This document shows positions 1,716-55,166 of a stretch of 60,176 nucleotides of DNA, piece by piece (position 1 is the first letter of the stretch; the number at the start of each line of letters is the position of its first letter). The position numbers were made by a program, and so were the translations under genes. The DNA lies in NCBI GenBank assembly GCA_036001865.1, contig DASYTX010000096.1, forward strand, positions 1 to 60,176, given 5' to 3'. This stretch comes from Terriglobales bacterium (GTDB lineage: Bacteria > Acidobacteriota > Terriglobia > Terriglobales > Acidobacteriaceae). The notes beneath the pieces were generated by a model. That model did no database searches, had not been told where the DNA came from, and saw nothing but the letters and a program-made list of their open reading frames with translations.

Positions 1716-4130
1716 TCAGCTGAACCCGAGCCGGTGCATCAAGTCCTGGAACTTGGGGTCGGAGCGCATTGGATCAAACACGGGATCGACTTTCAAAAAA
1801 ACCAGCCTGCTGTCACGCTCTTCATGCGCGCGCTGCAGCCACTCGATTGCCTGTTGCCTGTCGCCGAGCTGGGCATAACCTTGCGCCAAGGTGTATGCGG
1901 GCACGTAACCTCGCTTGGAAAGCTCCTTCAATCCTTCCAGCCAGCTCTCCAGCACACCTTTGTAACCTGACACGGCATAGTCCTGACCGATGGAGGCTGC
2001 CAATTCCGGGTTTCCGGCCAGTGTCATGACCCGTTGCCGCTCGGCCACAGCCTCCTTGTACATCCCGCTTTGCGCGTACGCTGCCTCAAGCGCCCGCTGC
2101 GCTGGTACGAAGGTGGAGTCCATGTCGAGTGTCTTGCGTAGCTGTTTGATGGCCTCGTCGTATTGGCGGGTGAAGTAATACAGCTTGCCGAGTGTGGTGT
2201 TGATGAGGAGCGACATCGGCTCCAGCTCTTGTGCCCTCCTGAGCTCGCGACCCGCTTCTTCGAAGCGCCCCATCTTCAGGAGATAATCTCCATACCAGTG
2301 GTGGGCCGCCACCGAGTTGGGATTAAGTTCGATGGCTCGCCTGAACTCCTGTTCCGCCCCTGCCCAATCCCAATCGTAATGCTCCTTGACCAACGCCAAG
2401 GAGGTGTGCGCCTCCGCCAGGCGGTCGTCGACCCTCAGCGCCTCCGAAGCGGCAGACTTTGCCCGCAGCCAGGCATCCCTCGACGGAAGATACCCGGAAT
2501 CTCCCAGCAGCGTGTATGTGTCCGCCAGTCCGGCATAGGCCAGGGCGTAATTGGGGTCCTTCTGCGCCGCTTCGCGGAAATAATTGGCGGCCTTCTTCAA
2601 TCCGTCTTCCGTCGACCGGTTCCAGTAATACAGGCCCCGCAGATAAAGCTGGTAAGCTTCCGCGTTTTCGGTGTAGTGCTTGGTCAGGCGTTGCTTCTCC
2701 TCGACGGTCAGCTTCGGGCGCAGGTTTTCATAGATGTCCCTGACAATGGCTTCCTGCACCACCACCAAGTCGGAGAGCTTGCGGTTGTACTGTGCGCCCC
2801 ATATTTGCGATCCATCACCGACATTCACGAGGTCAACCTGAATATTCAGCGTTTCACCACGTTGCGTAACCCTTCCTACCAATACGGCCTCAACATCGAG
2901 GTCACGTCCGATCTTCTGTGGGTCGGATTGCTGCCCCTTGTAAATAAAGACGGCGCTACGGGACTTCACCCGCACGTTGGAAAGCTGCGCCAGGCTGTTG
3001 ATGATGCCTTCCGTGATGCCATCGCTGAGGTACTCCACATTGCCGTCCGTGCTCGCGTTGACAAAAGGAAGGACGGCGATCGACTGGATGCGTCCCGAGC
3101 CAAAGCCTCGCCACAGCCGTTCCCTAAGCCCGCCCAGGTTGAGGCCCAAGAGCAGCAGCAGGACCAGCATGCCCGCTGCCGTAGCCATGGCCGCGGTGCG
3201 CCGCCGGCGGCGCACCGCCGGTAACGGTGCCGAGGTCGCGGTCACACGTGCGGAATCACTGTCACGTTTGGCACGCTTCAAATCGGCGCGCAGCTCGGCC
3301 GCGGTCTGGTAGCGCAGCTCGCGGTTCTTTTCCATGATCTTGGTGACGATGCGCTCGAGTTCCACCGGCAGGTCAGGATTGAACCGCAGAATGGGCGCCG
3401 GGGCGCGATTCAGGATGGCATCGAAGATGACCGCCGAAGTGCTCCCCGTGAACGCCGGCTTGCCCGTGGCCATCTCGTACAGCACGGCGCCGAATGAGAA
3501 CAGATCAGTGCGCACGTCCAGTTCTTCTCCCCGTGCCTGCTCTGGCGACATGTAGGCCACGGTGCCCAGCGATACGCCCGTGCTGGTCAAGTTCTCCTCG
3601 GTGGTGCCGATGGTTGCCAAGGATGCGACGCCGACACCTTCGGCCACGCGCTTGCGGTCGGGCACTAGTTTCGCCAGCCCGAAATCCAACACTTTCGCCT
3701 GCCCACGGCGCGTTATAAAGATATTGGCGGGTTTGAGGTCACGATGGATGATCCCTCGTTCGTGCGCCGCGTCCAAGGCATCGGCCACCTGGATGCCCAC
3801 TTCCATGATCTGTTCGGTGTCGAGGCGGCTGTTGGCGGTGCGGTACTTCAGCGTCTCGCCTTCCAGGAACTCCATGCAAATGAAGGGCTGGCCCTCATGC
3901 TCGTCGACCTCGTAGATGGTGCAGATGTTGGGGTGATTGATGGCCGAAGCCGCGCGTGCTTCGCGCTGGAAGCGCTCCAGCGCCTGCCGGTCCCGCCATA
4001 GCTCTTGCGGGAGGAACTTGAGGGCCACACGCCGGCCAAGTCGGAGGTCTTCCGCCCGGTACACCACGCCCATGCCGCCGCCGCCCAGCTTTTCCTCTAT
4101 GCGATAGTGCGAAACCGTCTGACCGATCAT
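1716..4130 (-). CDS. Ser/Thr protein kinase with a transmembrane segment and C-terminal TPR repeats
   Basis: Hanks kinase motifs are present: [30 protein letters not shown] and SPEQ. A TM stretch ([18 protein letters not shown]) is followed by TPR-like repeats ([14 protein letters not shown], ..). Confidence 0.9.
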
Positions 4131-49155: not shown

Positions 49156-49184
49156 TTGACCCTTCGGCGCGCGGGGCGTATCCT
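49156..49184 (+). promoter_or_regulatory. sigma70-like promoter of the FTR1 operon
   Basis: TTGACC (49156-49161), a 17-nt spacer and TATCCT (49179-49184). Confidence 0.5.
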
Positions 49185-49203
49185 AGGGTGCTGCTGCCCT
49201 AGG
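49182..49203. promoter_or_regulatory. perfect 7-N8-7 palindrome overlapping the -10 element (candidate metalloregulator operator)
   Basis: The sequence is CCTAGGG-TGCTGCTG-CCCTAGG. Confidence 0.4.
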
Positions 49204-49213
49204 TGAAACTGAG

Positions 49214-50485
49214 TTGCAACTAGGGCCGCTGTCTCCCATGCTCGAGGCTCTGGTCATCACCCTGCGTGAGGGTGTCGAAGCCGCCCTCATCGTCGGCATC
49301 ACTCTTGCCTACCTGGCGAAGATCGGCCGTGCCGACCTGCGCAAGGTGGTGTTTGCCGCGCTGGGGACGGCGTTCGTAGGCAGCATCGCCGCCGCCATTG
49401 TGCTCTCCCGCGCGGCGGTAAATCAGGAGGCGTTTGAAGGCTGGGTGATGCTGGCCGCCGCTTTCTTCGTGGTCACCATGATCATCTTCATGGCGCGCGC
49501 GGCGCGCGCTCTGAAGGGTCGCATCGAAAACCGGGTAGGGATGCTGGCGGGCGCGGGGTCGCAGGTCGGCCTGTTCCTATTCATTCTCCTCATGGTCCTG
49601 CGCGAAGGCGCGGAGACGGTGCTGATTCTCTCCGCCGTCTCCTTCAACAGCAGCGCGCTGATGAGCCTGATGGGCACAGTTCTGGGCATCGGCTTGGCGG
49701 TGCTGTTTGGAGTGATGTTTGTCAAGGGCAGCGTGCGCATCAACCTGCAGAAGTTCTTCCACGTCACCAGCGTGATCCTGGTTTTCGTGGCGGTGCAACT
49801 GGTGGTCTCCGGTCTGCACGAACTCTCCGAAGCCAGCGTGCTGCCGTCGAGCAAGCGGGAGATGGCCATCATCGGTCCCATCGTGCGCAATGACATGTTC
49901 TTCTTCGTTACCATCCTTGCTCTGGCTGCGCTAATGATTCTCTTCGAGTACCGCCGCCGCGCTCCCGAGGCGGTGGCCGCCTCGCGCGCCGAGCAGCGCA
50001 AGGCCCAGTGGACAGCGCGGCGCGAGCGCCTGTGGATGGCATCGGTGTACGCCAGCTCCTTCGTCTTCATCATGCTGGTGACGGCCCAGTTCATCTACGC
50101 CAAGAGCACCTCTTCCCTGACGCCGGCCACGCCTGTGGTCTTGGTGGACGGCAAAGTCACGGTTTCGACGACACAGCTCCAGGTCGGACAACTCGAGCGT
50201 TACGTGGCCAATCTCGGCGGTACCGAGGTCCGTTTCTTCCTCTACCGCAAGCCGGACAACCAGGTCGCCGTGCTCCTGGACGCCTGCGAGATCTGCGGTG
50301 GCGTCGGCTTTTATGCCGGCAGCGCCGGGCTGATTTGCAAGAACTGCACCTCGCCCATCAATCCCATGTCCGTCGGCCAAGCGGGCGGCTGCAATCCCAT
50401 TCCGCTGAAGGCCCTCGTGGAGGCCGAGCGCGTGACCGTTACGCTGTCTGAGCTGTCAACCGGCGCCAAGCACTTCGGGAAGTGA
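49214..50485 (+). CDS. FTR1/EfeU-family iron permease fused to a C-terminal DUF2318-like Cys-rich domain
   Basis: Two REXXE motifs are present (ITLREGVEAAL and MVLREGAETVL) across about 7 TMs. An extra TM is then followed by ..DACEICGGVGFYAGSAGLICKNCTSPINP..GGCNPIPL. The start is TTG 49214 (after AGGTGA) or ATG 49238. Confidence 0.8.
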   Translation: MQLGPLSPMLEALVITLREGVEAALIVGITLAYLAKIGRADLRKVVFAALGTAFVGSIAAAIVLSRAAVNQEAFEGWVMLAAAFFVVTMIIFMARAARALKGRIENRVGMLAGAGSQVGLFLFILLMVLREGAETVLILSAVSFNSSALMSLMGTVLGIGLAVLFGVMFVKGSVRINLQKFFHVTSVILVFVAVQLVVSGLHELSEASVLPSSKREMAIIGPIVRNDMFFFVTILALAALMILFEYRRRAPEAVAASRAEQRKAQWTARRERLWMASVYASSFVFIMLVTAQFIYAKSTSSLTPATPVVLVDGKVTVSTTQLQVGQLERYVANLGGTEVRFFLYRKPDNQVAVLLDACEICGGVGFYAGSAGLICKNCTSPINPMSVGQAGGCNPIPLKALVEAERVTVTLSELSTGAKHFGK

Positions 50486-50489
50486 TGCC

Positions 50490-51755
50490 ATGTTCGCCCG
50501 TCTGGTCTATCAATCGTTCCTGCGGCAACGCCGGCGGAAACTGCTGGCCGGACTGGCGATCATGCTGGGGGTGGCGGTGGCCACCGCCATGATTGCCGTG
50601 GCCGCCGACATCGGTGACAAGATCAGCCGTGAACTGCGCACCTACGGCGCAAACATTGTCGTTTACCCGCAGGAAGACACCCTGGATGTGGAGATCGGCG
50701 GGATCAATCTCAAGCCGTCTAGCGACGGCGCCTTTCTAAAAGAATCTGACCTGCCCGCGATCAAGGGCACATTCTGGCGAAATAACATCGTGGGCTTCGC
50801 GCCTTTCCTGCCGCTGCGCGTTGACGTTAGACAAGGAACTGCGGTGAGACCTGTCGACCTCATCGGGACATACTTCTCTCGACGCTTACGCTTTGGCAAA
50901 GATGAGTTCGTCACGGGAGTGCGCAACACGCACCCGTGGTGGCGCGTCGCCGGCAACTGGCCCGACGACGCCAGCCGCGACGTGCTCCTGGGGGAAGACC
51001 TGGCACAGCGACTGGGCACGCAACCCGGTGACAAAGTGCAGATCGCCGGCCGCGAAATTCGGGTTGTGGGCATTCTGTCTTCTGGCGGCGCGGAGGACGG
51101 GGCTGTGGTAGCGCCTCTGAGGTTCGCGCAGGAGATCCTCGGCAGGCCCGACGCAGTGCGCCGTGTCCTGGTCAGCGCGCTGACCAAGCCTGAAGACGCG
51201 CTGGCTCGCCGCGATCCCGACACCATGGACCGCGAGACCCGGGACCGCTGGTACTGCTCGCCCTATGCAAACTCCATCGCTTACCAGCTCCAAGAAGCCA
51301 TCCCCAACGCGCGCGCCGAGCAGATTCGCCAGGTGGCACAGAACGAAGGCGTGGTGCTGTCCCGCATTAAGGGACTCATGCTGTTCCTGACCCTGGCTGC
51401 CCTGGGCGCTTCCGCGCTTGCCGTCTCGGCCGCCATGGCCACCGCCATCTTCGAGCGCCGGCGCGAGGTCGGGCTGATGAAGGCGCTGGGCGCAGGAAAC
51501 GCCTCGGTTGCAGCCTTGTTTTTTGCCGAAGCCGGGCTGCTGGCGATCGTGGGCGGGGCGGCGGGCTTTGCCGCCGGAGTTGGTATGGCGCAGCAGGTAA
51601 GCGCCTGGATCTTCAACTCGCGCGTGACCGTCCAGCCGGTGCTCTTCCCTGTTGTGCTGGTGGTTGCAATCCTCGTGACTTTCACAGGCAGCGTGGCTGC
51701 CATCCGGCGGGCGATGCGCTTTGATCCCGCCGTGGTGCTGCGGGGGGACGCATGA
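50490..51755 (+). CDS. ABC transporter permease, FtsX/MacB type
   Basis: An N-terminal TM is followed by a large extracytoplasmic MacB_PCD-like domain and a C-terminal FtsX 3-TM bundle (..EVGLMKALGA..). Confidence 0.85.
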   Translation: MFARLVYQSFLRQRRRKLLAGLAIMLGVAVATAMIAVAADIGDKISRELRTYGANIVVYPQEDTLDVEIGGINLKPSSDGAFLKESDLPAIKGTFWRNNIVGFAPFLPLRVDVRQGTAVRPVDLIGTYFSRRLRFGKDEFVTGVRNTHPWWRVAGNWPDDASRDVLLGEDLAQRLGTQPGDKVQIAGREIRVVGILSSGGAEDGAVVAPLRFAQEILGRPDAVRRVLVSALTKPEDALARRDPDTMDRETRDRWYCSPYANSIAYQLQEAIPNARAEQIRQVAQNEGVVLSRIKGLMLFLTLAALGASALAVSAAMATAIFERRREVGLMKALGAGNASVAALFFAEAGLLAIVGGAAGFAAGVGMAQQVSAWIFNSRVTVQPVLFPVVLVVAILVTFTGSVAAIRRAMRFDPAVVLRGDA

Positions 51756-52858
51756 ATTCGCGACGCAAGATGTTTCTTCTCATGCTGTCGCGCCCTCTGG
51801 TTGTGCGTCGCGGCAGGACGTTGACGGCGCTGCTGGCCGTCGTGGTTGCCGCCTCGGTCGCAACCGCCACACTGAACCTTTACACCGATGTACAGGCCAA
51901 ACTTCATAAAGAGTTCCGCAGCTACGGCGCAAATATTGTGATCGCCGCACGTGAAGGCAAGACGCTGCCCGATGATGCGCTGGCCAGGACAGAAGCCGCC
52001 ATCGCCGGCCGGGGCATTGCCGCGCCATTCGGGTATGTGGTCGCGCATACCACGAGCGGATCGCCCGTGGTTGTTGCAGGCACAGACGTGGAACGCGCTC
52101 GACGGCTGAACGGCTGGTGGTCCGTCACCGCCTGGCCACGGGCTTCCGGGGCTGCGCTTTTGGGTGCCCGTGCAGTGCAGGTGCTTGCGCCTGATGGCAA
52201 GCCGTTTGACCTCTCGTTCCGCGCACGCAAGTTGAGGGTCGCGCCTGCGGGTACGCTGCGCACCGGAGCAGGCGAAGACAGCCGCGTCTATCTTTCGCTA
52301 GCCGACTTTCAGCGCTGGACCGGCCTGAAGCCGTCCACCATCGAGGTCGCAATCACGGGATCTGCGGACGAAATAGCGACGATGATTCCGCGATTGGCAG
52401 CATCGTTGCCCGAAGCCCAGGCGCGGCCGGTAAGGCAGATCGTCGAAGCCGAGGCGCGGGTTTTGGACAAGGCACGCGCTGCATTCTGGGCCACCAGCGC
52501 CATCATTCTGCTCACGGCTGCGCTGTGCATGCTGGCCACCCTGACGGCCTCGGTGCTCGACCGACGCAAGGACTTCGCCGTCATGAAGGCACTGGGGGCT
52601 TCGAACCTCGCTGTAAACGCCTTGTTCGCAGCCGAAGCCGCGGCCATCGGACTGGTAGGCGCAGTATTGGGGTTTGGCATCGGGGTAGGGATCGCTGCCT
52701 GGATCGGCCGCGCCAATTTTCATGCCGCGGTTGTGCCGCGCTTTGGCATACTGCCTGCCGTACTCGGCGGAAGCGTGCTGCTGGGGCTGATTTCTGCCAC
52801 CTTGCCTATGTCGCTGCTTCGCAAGGTGCAGCCTGCGGCAATTTTACGAGGAGAGTGA
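51752..52858 (+). CDS. ABC transporter permease, FtsX/MacB type (second copy)
   Basis: The architecture matches the first permease (..DFAVMKALGAS..). The start overlaps the upstream stop and the stop overlaps the next start. Confidence 0.85.
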   Translation: MNSRRKMFLLMLSRPLVVRRGRTLTALLAVVVAASVATATLNLYTDVQAKLHKEFRSYGANIVIAAREGKTLPDDALARTEAAIAGRGIAAPFGYVVAHTTSGSPVVVAGTDVERARRLNGWWSVTAWPRASGAALLGARAVQVLAPDGKPFDLSFRARKLRVAPAGTLRTGAGEDSRVYLSLADFQRWTGLKPSTIEVAITGSADEIATMIPRLAASLPEAQARPVRQIVEAEARVLDKARAAFWATSAIILLTAALCMLATLTASVLDRRKDFAVMKALGASNLAVNALFAAEAAAIGLVGAVLGFGIGVGIAAWIGRANFHAAVVPRFGILPAVLGGSVLLGLISATLPMSLLRKVQPAAILRGE

Positions 52859-54081
52859 TGTCGATCGAGATCAACCACGTCAGCCGTCAGTACCCTGCGC
52901 GGGCCGAGGCCAACGGCGCGGTGGTGCGTGCGCTGGACGACGTCTCGCTATCGGTGCCGGCAGGCGAGTGGCTGGCAGTAATGGGCCCTTCGGGCTCGGG
53001 CAAATCGACATTAGTTAACCTCATCGGCTGCCTCGACCGGCCCACCGCAGGCGAGATATGGCTTGAGGGCCAGAACGTTGCCACCTTCGCGGAATCGGAG
53101 CTGAACCGCTTCCGTGCCGAGAAGATCGGCTTCATCTTCCAGCAGTACCATCTCGTTCCGTACTTGACCGCGCTGGAGAACGTTCTGCTGGCGCAGTACT
53201 TCCATAGCATGACTGATCGCGCCGAGGCGCTCGAAGCACTGGAGTGCGTGGGGCTGGCGGACCGCGCCCATCATCTTCCGGCGCAGCTTTCCGGTGGCGA
53301 GCAGCAGCGCGTGTGCATCGCGCGCGCACTGATCAACGACCCTAAGATCATTCTGGCTGACGAGCCCACCGGCAATCTCGACGCCCACAACGAAGAACTG
53401 GTGCTCCGCCTGTTGCGCGAAATGCACCAGCAGGGCCGCACCATCGTGATGGTGACGCACGATCCCGTGGTAGCACGCATGGCCGACCGGCGGGTCGATC
53501 TGCACCACGGCCGCATCGCCGCCCAGGAAATCTTTTCCCTGGCCAACGACCTTCAGTTCGACGAAATCTTGGAGGAAATCTGGATACTGCACGAGAATGG
53601 CGAGCCCGCGGAGGTCGGCCGCATGCATGTGGACGGCGCGCTGCCCATCTCACTGGCCGTGGAGAAGATGGCCCACATGGATCTCATCACGGTGCGCCCG
53701 CATCCTCCCCAGCCGCACGCCCACAAAGATGTCCTCAACCGCTGCCACGAGGCCATCTGGCCGGACGGCAAGCCGGTCGGCGATGGCCACCTGATCGTGG
53801 AGTTCACCCCGCGCGGACGGCAGATGGCGGCCGACATCATCCGCCGGCACCGCCTCGCCGAACGCCTCCTCACCGAGACCCTGAAGGTACAGAGCGAAGC
53901 GGAGGTGGAGCAGCAAGCCTGCAGGTTCGAACACATTCTGTCGCCCGAGGCCACCGACAGGATCTGCTCCTTCCTCGGCCACCCGACGACTTGCCCGCAT
54001 GGCGCACCCATCCCTGCTGGTTCTTGCTGCGCAGCGAAGGCGGACCAGCACTGGTCCTCGTTTCGCGCGACCGGCGACTAG
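52858..54081 (+). CDS. ABC transporter ATP-binding protein fused to a C-terminal DtxR/IdeR-like metalloregulator module
   Basis: The ATG at 52858 overlaps the stop of the second permease (TGATG). Walker A is GPSGSGKST, the signature is LSGGEQQR, Walker B is ILADEPTGNLD and the H-loop is VTHD. The tail ..ILEEIWILHENGE..IRRHRLAERLLTETL..EQQACRFEHILSPE..FLGHPTTCPHGAPIP aligns to DtxR MRKHRLAERLLTDII..HDEACRWEHVMSDE..FGNPIP. Confidence 0.85.
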   Translation: MSIEINHVSRQYPARAEANGAVVRALDDVSLSVPAGEWLAVMGPSGSGKSTLVNLIGCLDRPTAGEIWLEGQNVATFAESELNRFRAEKIGFIFQQYHLVPYLTALENVLLAQYFHSMTDRAEALEALECVGLADRAHHLPAQLSGGEQQRVCIARALINDPKIILADEPTGNLDAHNEELVLRLLREMHQQGRTIVMVTHDPVVARMADRRVDLHHGRIAAQEIFSLANDLQFDEILEEIWILHENGEPAEVGRMHVDGALPISLAVEKMAHMDLITVRPHPPQPHAHKDVLNRCHEAIWPDGKPVGDGHLIVEFTPRGRQMAADIIRRHRLAERLLTETLKVQSEAEVEQQACRFEHILSPEATDRICSFLGHPTTCPHGAPIPAGSCCAAKADQHWSSFRATGD

Positions 54082-54155: not shown

Positions 54156-55166
54156 TTAGTACAGGCGGAAGCTGACCTCCACGTTCATCTGCACCGCCAC
54201 GGGGTGGCCGTCTTTCAGGGCGGGCTCAAACTTCCACTGCCGGACCGCCTGGAGAGCCCTCTCGTCCAAGCCCATGCCCAGGCTGCGGGCCACCCGCAAC
54301 TCACGCGGACGGCCGTCGGGTCCGACAATCAGCCACAGCACCACGGTGCCCTGATACTTCGCTTTGCGAGCTTCTTCCGAGTATTCCGGATCAGGCGTGT
54401 AGAGCGGCCGCGGGGCTGACACTCCGCCGCCAATGCGAAACACGCCGCCACCGATACCACCGCCCTTTCCCGGACCAACGCCTGGTCCTTCACCGGATCC
54501 AACTCCGCCACCAGAACCTGACCCGATGCCGCTGCCCGAGCCCGTGCCGTTCGACGGCGGCCCCACGACCTTTGCCATGGGATCACCCAGGCTGGGCAGG
54601 TTGTTAGAGGGCAGCTTCACTTGCGGAGGAATCACGACTGTAGGCTCGACGGGAAGTTTGGGAGCAACATTGCGTACCACCACCGCGGGCGGGGTGATCT
54701 GCTCCATGGCCAGTTTCGGCAACCGGCCCTTAGGAGCTTCCAGCTTGTCACGGTCGCCGCCGCCTCCGCCACCGCCAACGGTGTCGTTAGGCTTGTTAGA
54801 AATTGGCATGTAAACGGAGATGTCGGGAGAGATCAAGCTGACGACTTGTTGATTCTTGACTTCCTGCACCACCCTGCTGCCCAGGACCGACAGGGCAATC
54901 AACGCGCCCACCATGGCTGTGTGCGCCAGCAGAGAGCCAAATGTGGCCGTCTTTTTGTGCTGGGACTCGCCCCAGATCTCACGCACCCTGACAGGGCGTG
55001 AGGTCAACTTCAGGGGCGGGAGCTTCTGCGGAAACAAGTTGTCGCGGAGGTTCTCTTTGAGGGAACTCCACCACGACTTATCCATATTGAGCATCAGCCG
55101 ACGCAGGTGCTTGTCAGCGTCGCTGAGCGCGATGTCCTGACGCGGGATTAAAACCTGGTTCGCCAT
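54156..55166 (-). CDS. TonB-family energy transducer with long Pro- and Gly-rich linkers
   Basis: The TM segment is LLAHTAMVGALIALSVL. A Pro/Val-rich segment and then GSGSGIGSGSGGGVGSGEGPGVGPGKGGGIGGG follow. The TonB_C domain is YTPDPEYSEEARKAKYQGTVVLWLIVGPDGRP..V..SLGMGLDE.A..AV..WKFEPA. Confidence 0.8.
   Translation of the reverse strand: MANQVLIPRQDIALSDADKHLRRLMLNMDKSWWSSLKENLRDNLFPQKLPPLKLTSRPVRVREIWGESQHKKTATFGSLLAHTAMVGALIALSVLGSRVVQEVKNQQVVSLISPDISVYMPISNKPNDTVGGGGGGGDRDKLEAPKGRLPKLAMEQITPPAVVVRNVAPKLPVEPTVVIPPQVKLPSNNLPSLGDPMAKVVGPPSNGTGSGSGIGSGSGGGVGSGEGPGVGPGKGGGIGGGVFRIGGGVSAPRPLYTPDPEYSEEARKAKYQGTVVLWLIVGPDGRPRELRVARSLGMGLDERALQAVRQWKFEPALKDGHPVAVQMNVEVSFRLY

Follow-up and report, generated by a model that had tools for sequence, protein, structure and literature searches.

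A DtxR-like module on the ATPase of an acidobacterial FTR1 iron-uptake operon has most likely lost DNA binding and may sense metal for the ATPase

An ABC ATPase with a DtxR-like tail

What does a metal-sensing module of the DtxR type do at the end of the ATPase of an ATP-binding cassette (ABC) system? The question is raised by the last gene of a four-gene operon (FTR1/FtrD, FtsX, FtsX, ATPase) on a contig of a Terriglobales bacterium (GenBank assembly GCA_036001865.1, contig DASYTX010000096.1, positions 1 to 60,176), here called the window, by which the whole stretch of 60,176 nucleotides is meant. An earlier reading of the sequence alone, the original prediction, held that the ATPase carries a complete DtxR/IdeR-like module with an intact Fe-type site and offered two functions for it, direct feedback inhibition of the importer's motor by cytosolic Fe2+ or moonlighting as the repressor of the operon. 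The best reading of the present analysis, with a probability of roughly 0.55, is that the tail is a metal sensor that is blind to DNA and throttles the ATPase.

The gene (52858..54081, plus strand) starts at ATG 52858, not at 52525 as given by the open reading frame (ORF) finder (52525..54081), and stops at 54079-54081; its start overlaps the stop codon of the gene for permease B (GTGATG). The 407-residue product consists of an ABC ATPase (residues 1-225), a linker of 5 residues and a DtxR-like module of 180 residues. All ATPase motifs are present (Walker A at residue 43, LSGGE at 144, Walker B at 165, MVTHD at 198), and the tail carries the strings DEILEEIW (235), IRRHRLAERL (328), CRFEH (355) and CPHGAPIP (379). 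The predicted tail of about 180 residues behind MVTHD was thus found in place, the interval 53551..54081 covering it from residue 232 through the stop. The parts of the gene are as follows; NBD stands for the nucleotide-binding domain and pLDDT for the predicted local distance difference test.

52858..53532, plus strand: NBD, residues 1-225, MacB/LolD/FtsE class (Pfam, NCBIfam, Foldseek); last strand 219-225
53533..53547, plus strand: linker from the NBD to helix alpha1, residues 226-230 (full-length AlphaFold model: strand 219-225, helix 231-246, pLDDT about 75 between them)
53548..53697, plus strand: degenerate winged-helix domain, residues 231-280, made up of alpha1, a short strand, a loop in place of helix 2 of the helix-turn-helix (HTH), the equivalent of the recognition helix and the first wing strand (AlphaFold, hhalign; no PF01325 match)
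53698..53778, plus strand: 27-residue wing insertion specific to Terriglobia, P281-V307 (pLDDT about 68, short helix 295-298)
53779..54021, plus strand: DtxR-type dimerisation and metal-binding domain, residues 308-388 (Pfam 2e-28, IdeR/DtxR alignments)
54022..54081, plus strand: Cys390-Cys391, terminal helix 389-406 and stop codon, in place of the SH3/FeoA domain of canonical relatives

Pfam reports ABC_tran at residues 26-171 (2e-36), and in NCBIfam the NBD matches MacB (3e-68), FtsE (1e-61) and LolD (2e-60). In Foldseek the modelled NBD aligns with the ABC domain of E. coli MacB at a template-modelling (TM) score of 0.92 and 45% identity, followed in rank by MJ0796, LolD, FtsE, YbbA, HrtA and BceA; a Foldseek search with the full-length model returned no solved structure spanning both NBD and tail. 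Because an NBD of the MacB/LolD/FtsE class is combined with permease partners of the FtsX/MacB_PCD type, the ATPase drives a type VII mechanotransducing ABC unit and is not the motor of a canonical importer. The description as the importer's motor was therefore mistaken, the iron channel being the FTR1-type protein.

The fusion is conserved in Acidobacteriota

The original prediction had itself raised the worry of an assembly or frameshift artefact, in which an ATPase gene and a separate gene for a regulator have been run together, and the many database entries that consist of "regulators" of 180-300 residues or of partial ATPases seem to support it. In a scan of one genome per species at least 596 matches were obtained, and the best 80 of them, all from Terriglobia or Acidobacteriota metagenome-assembled genomes, were compared. 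The tblastn match of the NBD runs straight into that of the tail, in the same frame, in 80 of these 80 loci, each from an independent genome. Contigs as long as 870 kb encode full-length fusion proteins of 360-410 residues, and the entries of 180-300 residues are fragments or calls from an internal Met, still bearing NBD sequence such as MVTHD. The artefact is ruled out by the in-frame contiguity and the NBD-bearing fragments, its remaining chance being negligible, and it is practically certain that the fusion is real and conserved.

The survey for this architecture that had been proposed recovered the same in-frame fusion in Terriglobia and in Polarisedimenticolia. The four-gene order FTR1/FtrD, FtsX, FtsX, ATPase is kept in the related loci wherever the contig is long enough. 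The second, more distant fusion group, from Candidatus Polarisedimenticolia, has about 360 residues, is 50-53% identical, sits in the same operon and lacks the wing insertion. A third subgroup of NBD fusions (P0145, P0141) is likewise devoid of the wing insertion; its NBD-to-alpha1 linker has an added motif rich in Cys, HPLxCPLVNTxDCC, an echo of the C-terminal HPxxCPHG...CC signature.

The tail has the DtxR fold without the first HTH helix

AlphaFold2 modelled the tail (residues 222-407, with 120 homologues) at a pLDDT of 87 and a predicted TM score (pTM) of 0.82, and the full-length protein at 88 and 0.69. Only DtxR-family chains stood at the top of the Foldseek result for the tail. Since two-domain IdeR/DtxR structures align with it over about 160 columns (E-value 1e-8, target-normalised TM score 0.74-0.80), the whole tail corresponds to DtxR domains 1 and 2, which bears out the diverged winged-helix lead-in that had been predicted. 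The overall winged-helix-like topology is kept. Helix 231-246 is followed by a short strand (251-253), coil, helix 264-273 and strand 277-281; after a loop of 27-30 residues come strand 312-316, the dimerisation domain with its three helices, and helix 389-406. By profile-profile alignment the wing insertion, which had been put at about 28 residues, comprises the 27 residues P281-V307; it is absent from the Polarisedimenticolia-type fusions and from the standalone relatives described below.

Sequence comparisons point to the same family. Fe_dep_repr_C (PF02742) is found at residues 317-386 with an E-value of 2.3e-28 (98 bits against a cut-off of 27), a phmmer search of the PDB sequences aligned the tail with IdeR 57-134 (E-value 5e-16), and hhalign against canonical DtxR gave a probability of 99.4%, with an alignment that begins at R255 (Arg33 of DtxR) and places helix 264-273 on the recognition helix. 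NCBIfam returned a weak DtxR match (2e-21), far under the cut-off of the model. The dimerisation and metal-binding segment had been called near-verbatim DtxR; the domain is present, but with 39% identity over 85 residues (tblastn) that wording is too strong. Similarly, of the two Pfam domains expected behind ABC_tran, Fe_dep_repr_C is there, whereas Fe_dep_repress (PF01325), the N-terminal DNA-binding domain of DtxR, was undetected in the ATPase by Pfam and NCBIfam, even at an E-value of 0.1.

The first HTH helix, helix 2, which in DtxR comprises the region of Arg27-Ala28-Arg29, has no counterpart in the tail. The segment from Gly22 to Gly52 is a net 3 residues shorter than in DtxR, and both AlphaFold models show strand and coil at 249-263. 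The base-contacting Gln43 is replaced by Leu266 (Ile or Leu in the family), Ala46 by Glu269 (always Asp or Glu in the family), and in the hhalign alignment Ser37 by Asp259 and Pro39 by Ala261. The winged-helix domain has a net charge of -8, with a family mean of -10.9 and a value of -4 for DtxR residues 1-64. Pfam found no SH3 or FeoA domain in the tail. The module is thus not complete as had been stated, lacking the first HTH helix, the base-contacting residues and the SH3/FeoA domain, and the models suggest that it is most likely a DtxR-family metal-sensing module without DNA-binding capacity.

Standalone relatives are encoded next to feoB

When 1.8 billion cluster representatives were searched with a profile, 4468 relatives emerged. 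The nearest ones without an NBD, annotated as "metal-dependent transcriptional regulator", have about 210-250 residues with Fe_dep_repr_C and a C-terminal FeoA domain and, like the tail, no match to PF01325. The alpha1 motif (D/E)E(I/L)LExxW.L.E.G is common to the fusions and this standalone clade, and an alignment of the two has 23 invariant columns, which include residues of the alpha1 motif, C..EH, CPHG and CC. The full Cys/His signature (C..EH, then C-x4-H-x3-C-x-HG, then CC, the latter two combined as C-x4-H-x3-C-x-H-x8-CC) is present in 108 of the best 150 cluster representatives. The N-terminal domain of the standalone proteins is shorter and variable, the His79 equivalent lying at a median residue of 72 (range 62-107).

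The genomic context was looked up for seven of these proteins, with source labels of Elusimicrobia, an archaeon, Buchananbacteria (of the candidate phyla radiation, CPR), Omnitrophota and Chloroflexota and two unlabelled metagenome proteins (context loci L081-L087 and L090-L093, the gene at 4001 or 5001 in each). The gene lies directly downstream of feoB in 7 of 7 cases, and a separate Fur or a canonical DtxR of 138 residues with PF01325 is encoded in the same cluster in 6 of 7. Thus, an iron importer's NTPase motor is a recurrent partner of this type of sensor, either through FeoA beside FeoB or, in Acidobacteriota, as an NBD fusion. No separate small FeoA gene was called in the feoB clusters examined. 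One further protein, P0204 (428 residues), in which two transketolase domains (pyrimidine-binding and C-terminal) stand together with Fe_dep_repr_C and FeoA, is likely a chimera of gene calling or assembly, not a real architecture.

Conserved residues point to two metal sites

The invariance of candidate ligands was judged in 120 Terriglobia homologues and in a set of 99 homologues. Within the domain 308-388 the candidates are His331, Glu335, Glu351, Cys355, Glu358, His359, Cys370, His375, Cys379 and His381. Invariant in the 120 homologues and in both fusion classes are Glu335, Cys355, Glu358, His359, Cys370, His375, Cys379, His381, Cys390 and Cys391, while His331, Glu351, Asp235 and Glu236 are conserved to at least 90%. 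As listed in the original prediction, the equivalents of His79, Glu83, Cys102, Glu105 and His106 are kept in the IdeR alignment and His98 is replaced by Glu.

In the primary site Cys355, Glu358 and His359 are invariant. Its remaining residue, the equivalent of Met10, had not been mentioned before; it corresponds to Glu236 in a manual register of alpha1, anchored on four positions conserved in both families (L238/L12, W242/Y16, E246/E20 and G248/G22). The primary-type site would accordingly be a Glu/Cys/Glu/His set, a hybrid like that of Porphyromonas gingivalis MntR (PgMntR), in which Asp19, Cys108, Glu111 and His112 bind both Mn2+ and Fe2+ (PMC4805248). In the ancillary site His331 and Glu335 are kept, the His98 position is Glu351 and the SH3-domain ligands are missing. 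An alignment of SloR 61-131 with tail positions 89-160, which has one gap and on which residues were mapped by arithmetic, makes His331, Glu335, Cys379 and His381 coincide with SloR His76, Glu80, Cys123 and His125, the streptococcal Mn-sensing site (PMC9253540). Judged from this alignment, Cys379 and His381 probably substitute for the missing ancillary ligands, as in MtsR and SloR.

Given the match to a Mn site and a Glu placed in the Met10 position, the Cys alone does not define an Fe-type sensor, and the label Fe-type goes too far. That the tail binds a divalent metal is very probable. As to which metal is sensed, Fe2+ is the first guess in view of the iron context (FTR1, Fur-type control).

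The tail has more conserved Cys and His residues than these two sites use. In the wing insertion of Terriglobia Cys296-His297 are invariant and His282, His287 and His289 nearly so; together with Cys370, His375, Cys390 and Cys391 they may, as far as conservation can tell, form a further site. This raises the alternative that the tail is a metal acceptor, which takes iron from the FTR1 channel and passes it on, or that it binds an iron-sulfur (Fe-S) cluster or Zn through Cys296, Cys370, Cys390 and Cys391 and reports Fe-S or redox status in place of free Fe2+. The invariant residues, six Cys and several His, exceed the needs of DtxR, the Cys/His signature is widespread among the cluster representatives, the third fusion subgroup adds its Cys-rich linker motif, and the partner protein bears an FtrD-like domain of the Fe-S type. 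A further parallel is the winged-helix protein FeoC, in which the wing holds an Fe-S cluster. On the other hand, Cys379 and His381 are already taken by a known His-Glu-Cys-His site (PMC9253540), and Pfam found no Fe-S motif family in the ATPase. The wing residues Cys296 and His297 occur neither in the Polarisedimenticolia fusions nor in the standalone clade and are therefore not essential to the core function. A role as acceptor or Fe-S sensor is for these reasons considered unlikely.

Transcription of the operon appears to be delegated to Fur-type proteins

To assess the moonlighting idea, the 300 nucleotides upstream of the FTR1 gene were compared in 70 related loci and the window (71 regions). 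The elements of the window are the following.

49156..49184, plus strand: putative sigma-70 promoter, TTGACC at 49156-49161, a 17-nucleotide spacer and TATCCT at 49179-49184
49182..49203, no strand: palindrome CCTAGGG-N8-CCCTAGG, left arm overlapping the -10 hexamer; in 1 of 71 regions (the window only)
49203..49221, no strand: candidate operator GTGAAACTGAGTTGCAACT, a degenerate copy of TTGCAACTCAGTTGCAA at the site of the Fur-like box of the relatives

A TTGAC-N17-19-TAT[CGT]CT element stands at the equivalent place in 69 of the 71 regions, which is consistent with a putative function of 49156..49184 as operon promoter. Immediately downstream of the promoter, 62 of the 71 regions have TTGAAATTGAAATTCATTTTCAA, a 7-1-7 palindrome that the window is without; it lies about 30-120 nucleotides upstream of the FTR1 start (L005-L080 and others; for example, at about 3620-3645 in L008). 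With TGAAAAT for TGATAAT, one base off the classical half-site, it looks like an acidobacterial Fur box. In Polarisedimenticolia the first gene of the operon itself encodes a Fur-family protein (L088 2377-2892, L089 2687-3223) and is preceded by TGAGATTGAGTCTCAATTTCGA-like boxes, which suggests that this fur is autoregulated. To look for a gene for Fur or another DtxR in the window, E. coli Fur, three Furs of related operons and DtxR were run as tblastn queries; the tail was the only match. Taken together, transcription of the operon appears, from its upstream sequences, to be delegated to Fur-type proteins. Given this control and the degenerate HTH, a repressor role of the tail is unlikely, and the moonlighting idea is disfavoured. 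The palindrome at 49182..49203, which had been proposed as the operator of the tail, was rejected: it is confined to a single region, and its left arm covers the conserved -10 hexamer.

Two further upstream elements were observed. An element of the TTGCAACTCAGTTGCAA type (at most 3 mismatches) is present in 9 of the 71 regions including the window, the other 62 having TGAAATTGAAATTCATTTTCA instead. The eight relatives concerned are L019, L022, L026, L029, L041, L043, L044 and L079, and the element is built from the palindrome (A)GTTGCAAC(T), for the most part arranged as TTGCAACTCAGTTGCAA; this hints that such operons answer to another regulator, and perhaps to another metal. In 30 of the 71 operons the -35 element is preceded by a CRP/FNR-type palindrome, TGTGA-N6-TCACA, about 60-110 nucleotides before the FTR1 start (for example, L005, L024 and L056). 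The window does not have this palindrome, which suggests that an activator acts on those operons, for instance in response to oxygen or carbon status.

A special form of the repressor idea has a precedent. In Chlamydia the DtxR-like domain at the C terminus of the permease YtgC is cleaved off as YtgR and represses ytgABCD with Fe2+, and similar permease-repressor fusions have been reported in 11 phyla (PMC5599777). The tail of the ATPase might in the same way bind DNA in a metal-dependent manner, either freed by proteolysis or an internal start or while tethered to the membrane. Its fold still resembles DtxR domains 1 and 2 with an equivalent of the recognition helix, and an in-frame ATG at codon 228, where the tail begins, is present in 70 of 80 relatives. 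In the window and its closest relatives, however, codon 228 is Leu (CTG) and not Met. Loci with ATG 228 use GAA for the Glu four codons upstream in 63 of 66 cases, compared with 51% GAA overall in these genes, and this bias avoids AGGAGG, the stronger variant of a Shine-Dalgarno sequence. The synonymous bias around CAGGAAGT (codons 223-228; 53524-53541 in the window) may reflect avoidance of an internal Shine-Dalgarno sequence or a weak internal start. For an internal start that yields a free tail the codon evidence is ambiguous and leans against it. The missing HTH helix 2 and PF01325, the replaced Gln43, Ser37 and Pro39 and the invariant acidic residue on the recognition helix also speak against a YtgR-like repressor, as do the Fur-type operators in 62 of 71 regions, the operons that encode a Fur of their own, the palindrome unique to the window and the co-occurrence of the standalone relatives with a separate regulator. 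A repressor of this kind is very unlikely.

A proposed feedback on the ATPase

Direct feedback on the ATPase, the other function offered in the original prediction, is the favoured reading; it draws on the domain architecture and conserved ligands, the confident fold match to two-domain IdeR/DtxR, the 5-residue linker, the in-frame fusion and operon kept in two classes, the iron context, the evidence against a transcription factor and the feoB-linked clade. In the mechanism proposed, the tails of an NBD dimer would pair beneath the NBDs by way of the interface of DtxR domain 2. A rise in cytosolic Fe2+ (or Mn2+) would load two sites with metal: site 1, resembling the DtxR primary site, in which Glu236 on alpha1 would be bridged to Cys355, Glu358 and His359 of domain 2, and site 2, formed by His331, Glu335, Cys379 and His381. 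The movement of domain 1 against domain 2, which in DtxR clamps the DNA, would here set the spacing of the NBDs instead and so throttle ATP hydrolysis. With no more than 5 residues between the NBD and domain 1, such a movement would change NBD spacing. The outcome would be a post-translational feedback like the trans-inhibition of MetNI and ModBC, brought about by an unrelated fold, with transcription left to a separate Fur-family regulator. For the part of this reading that says the tail regulates the ATPase, the odds are taken to be even or a shade better.

Several points weigh against the proposal of a DNA-blind sensor that throttles the ATPase. Metal binding, metal identity, dimer geometry and the effect on the ATPase are all inferred. 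The two ligand sets and the Glu236 bridge were derived from alignments and not from model coordinates; the equation of Met10 with Glu236 in particular depends on the manual four-anchor register, as alpha1 was left unaligned by hhalign. The pTM of 0.69 of the full-length model leaves the orientation of the tail relative to the NBD uncertain. The charge argument against DNA binding is only supportive, the DNA-binding domain of DtxR being itself acidic (-4). Cys370, His375, Cys390 and Cys391, as well as Cys296/His297, are not accounted for by the sensor model. Finally, the choice of inhibition over activation is a guess, as it depends on what a MacB-type ABC unit does in FTR1 uptake.

A simpler role would be that of a structural clamp, in which the DtxR-derived domain only holds the NBDs together and any metal is structural. 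PgMntR, BsMntR and ScaR are dimeric without metal (PMC4805248), and MacB-type NBDs work as dimers. Yet the ligands of the regulatory sites are invariant in two classes and in the feoB-linked clade, which would be unexpected for an interface alone, and most MacB/LolD/FtsE ATPases need no clamp. This explanation is thought quite unlikely, and a metal sensor acting on the ATPase remains the preferred reading.

Comparison with known systems

Regulatory C-terminal domains on ABC ATPases and fusions of DtxR with transporters are already known, and the combination in this locus is a variant of both. Trans-inhibition operates in MetNI and ModBC via C-terminal domains. As in MetN (C2/NIL) and in ModC, CysA and MalK (TOBE-type), the extra domain follows the NBD and is expected to dimerise below the NBDs, and as in the MetN/ModC type the tail would plausibly bind the ion served by the system. 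It differs from these by its winged-helix plus DtxR helical fold, which is neither ACT-like nor TOBE (Pfam, Foldseek), and by an ABC unit that is a type VII mechanotransducer and not a translocation pathway.

With the DtxR/IdeR/MntR branch (including ScaR, SloR, MtsR and PgMntR) the tail has in common the two-domain fold, the dimerisation and metal-binding domain, the His79, Glu83, Cys102, Glu105 and His106 equivalents and a CPHG that corresponds to streptococcal Cys123/His125. Unlike DtxR and IdeR it is fused to an NBD, has lost HTH helix 2 and the base contacts, lacks the SH3/FeoA domain, has Glu for His98 and, in the manual register, for Met10, and carries a 27-residue wing insertion with Cys and His and an invariant C-terminal CC. 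The feoB-linked proteins of the DtxR_C plus FeoA type are similar in the alpha1 motif, the Cys/His signature, the lack of PF01325 and an NTPase motor as neighbour; however, they are separate polypeptides with FeoA at the C terminus, whereas the protein of the window has the NBD at its N terminus and no FeoA. The YtgC-YtgR system of Chlamydia likewise has a DtxR-like module covalently joined to a metal-related ABC component of the same operon. In Ytg, though, the module is joined to a type II importer's permease, has a working DNA-binding domain, is cleaved and represses, whereas here the module sits on a MacB-type ATPase, the FtsX-type permeases have genes of their own, the HTH is degenerate and control is of the Fur type.

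The operon corresponds to the FetA, FetB, FetC and FetD part of the fetMP-fetABCDEF gene set. Like the FetMP-FetABCDEF and P19-Ftr1 systems of C. jejuni and E. coli F11 it has FTR1, a DUF2318/FtrD-like domain, two FtsX permeases, an ATPase and Fur-type control; here, by contrast, FTR1 and the FtrD-like part form one protein, and the operon has no P19 or thioredoxin genes. In C. jejuni each of the genes fetA, fetB, fetC and fetD is needed when iron is limiting, with no role yet assigned to the ABC unit, and no tail is mentioned for the FetD ATPase (PMC10783030). A literature search found no paper on the NBD fusion, on the feoB-linked arrangement or on trans-inhibition by a DtxR-like domain.

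What a sensor on the motor would mean

Control of bacterial iron uptake is usually placed at transcription, through Fur or DtxR, and a fast, direct shut-off of the importer by cytosolic metal is poorly documented. Acidic, redox-variable soils are common habitats of Terriglobia, and soluble Fe2+ and Mn2+ presumably fluctuate there; the family is abundant in soil Terriglobia, with at least 596 species-level genomes matched. It is tentatively proposed, as an idea still on the doubtful side, that DNA-blind sensors derived from DtxR are widespread, unrecognised post-translational governors of iron import that sit on NTPase motors and include a third Cys/His site. If true, the class would comprise the NBD fusion in Fet-type systems of Acidobacteriota and FeoA beside FeoB in many bacterial and archaeal lineages, and the third site, Cys370/His375/Cys390/Cys391 with the Cys of the wing or linker in some subgroups, would respond to another signal, for instance Fe-S or redox state. 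Thousands of genes labelled "metal-dependent transcriptional regulator" may then be regulators of transporters, which would bear on the control of FeoB by FeoA. With a classical sensor domain for iron or manganese naturally placed 5 linker residues from an ATPase, the protein makes the idea directly testable, and it offers a handle on the role of the FetBCD-type ABC unit in FTR1/P19 uptake, a unit that is required in Campylobacter.

Operon and neighbouring genes

The other genes of the operon are the following.

49238..50485, plus strand: iron permease of the FTR1/EfeU type with a fused Cys-rich, FtrD-like domain (DUF2318)
50490..51755, plus strand: ABC permease A, MacB/FtsX type, FetB/FetC-like (Pfam MacB_PCD 6e-16, FtsX 2e-16)
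51752..52858, plus strand: ABC permease B, MacB/FtsX type, its stop overlapping the ATPase start (Pfam FtsX 7e-18, MacB_PCD 6e-6)

The FTR1/FtrD protein matches FTR1 (1e-31) and FtrD-like (3e-24) in Pfam and EfeU (3e-43) in NCBIfam and contains both REGxE motifs (LREGVEAAL and LREGAETVL). Based on the starts of homologues and the N-terminal FTR1 match, it likely starts at ATG 49238 (MLEALVITLREGVE...) and not at TTG 49214 of the ORF finder; the 24 nucleotides between the two overlap the candidate operator. Both permeases carry PF02687 and PF12704, the FtsX domain and the MacB-like periplasmic core, and permease A is present in the operon at all related loci with enough flank. There is no feoB in the operon, which has FTR1 and ABC genes instead. 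Genes for P19/FetP and the thioredoxins FetE/FetF were not found within the four-gene operon, the rest of the window not being searched.

The operon is flanked by an SMC gene and a TonB-like gene. The latter, which encodes a Gly/Pro-rich linker, lies at 54156-55166 on the minus strand and converges on the ATPase gene, 74 nucleotides from its stop. A TonB homologue is also found within a few kb downstream in many related loci, which hints at a functional link with iron uptake across the outer membrane. In the closest relative with a complete chromosome (OY969886.1; L001 3692-4941) FTR1/FtrD is split into two overlapping ORFs of 325 and 159 residues, probably by a frameshift that stems from a sequencing error or marks a pseudogene.

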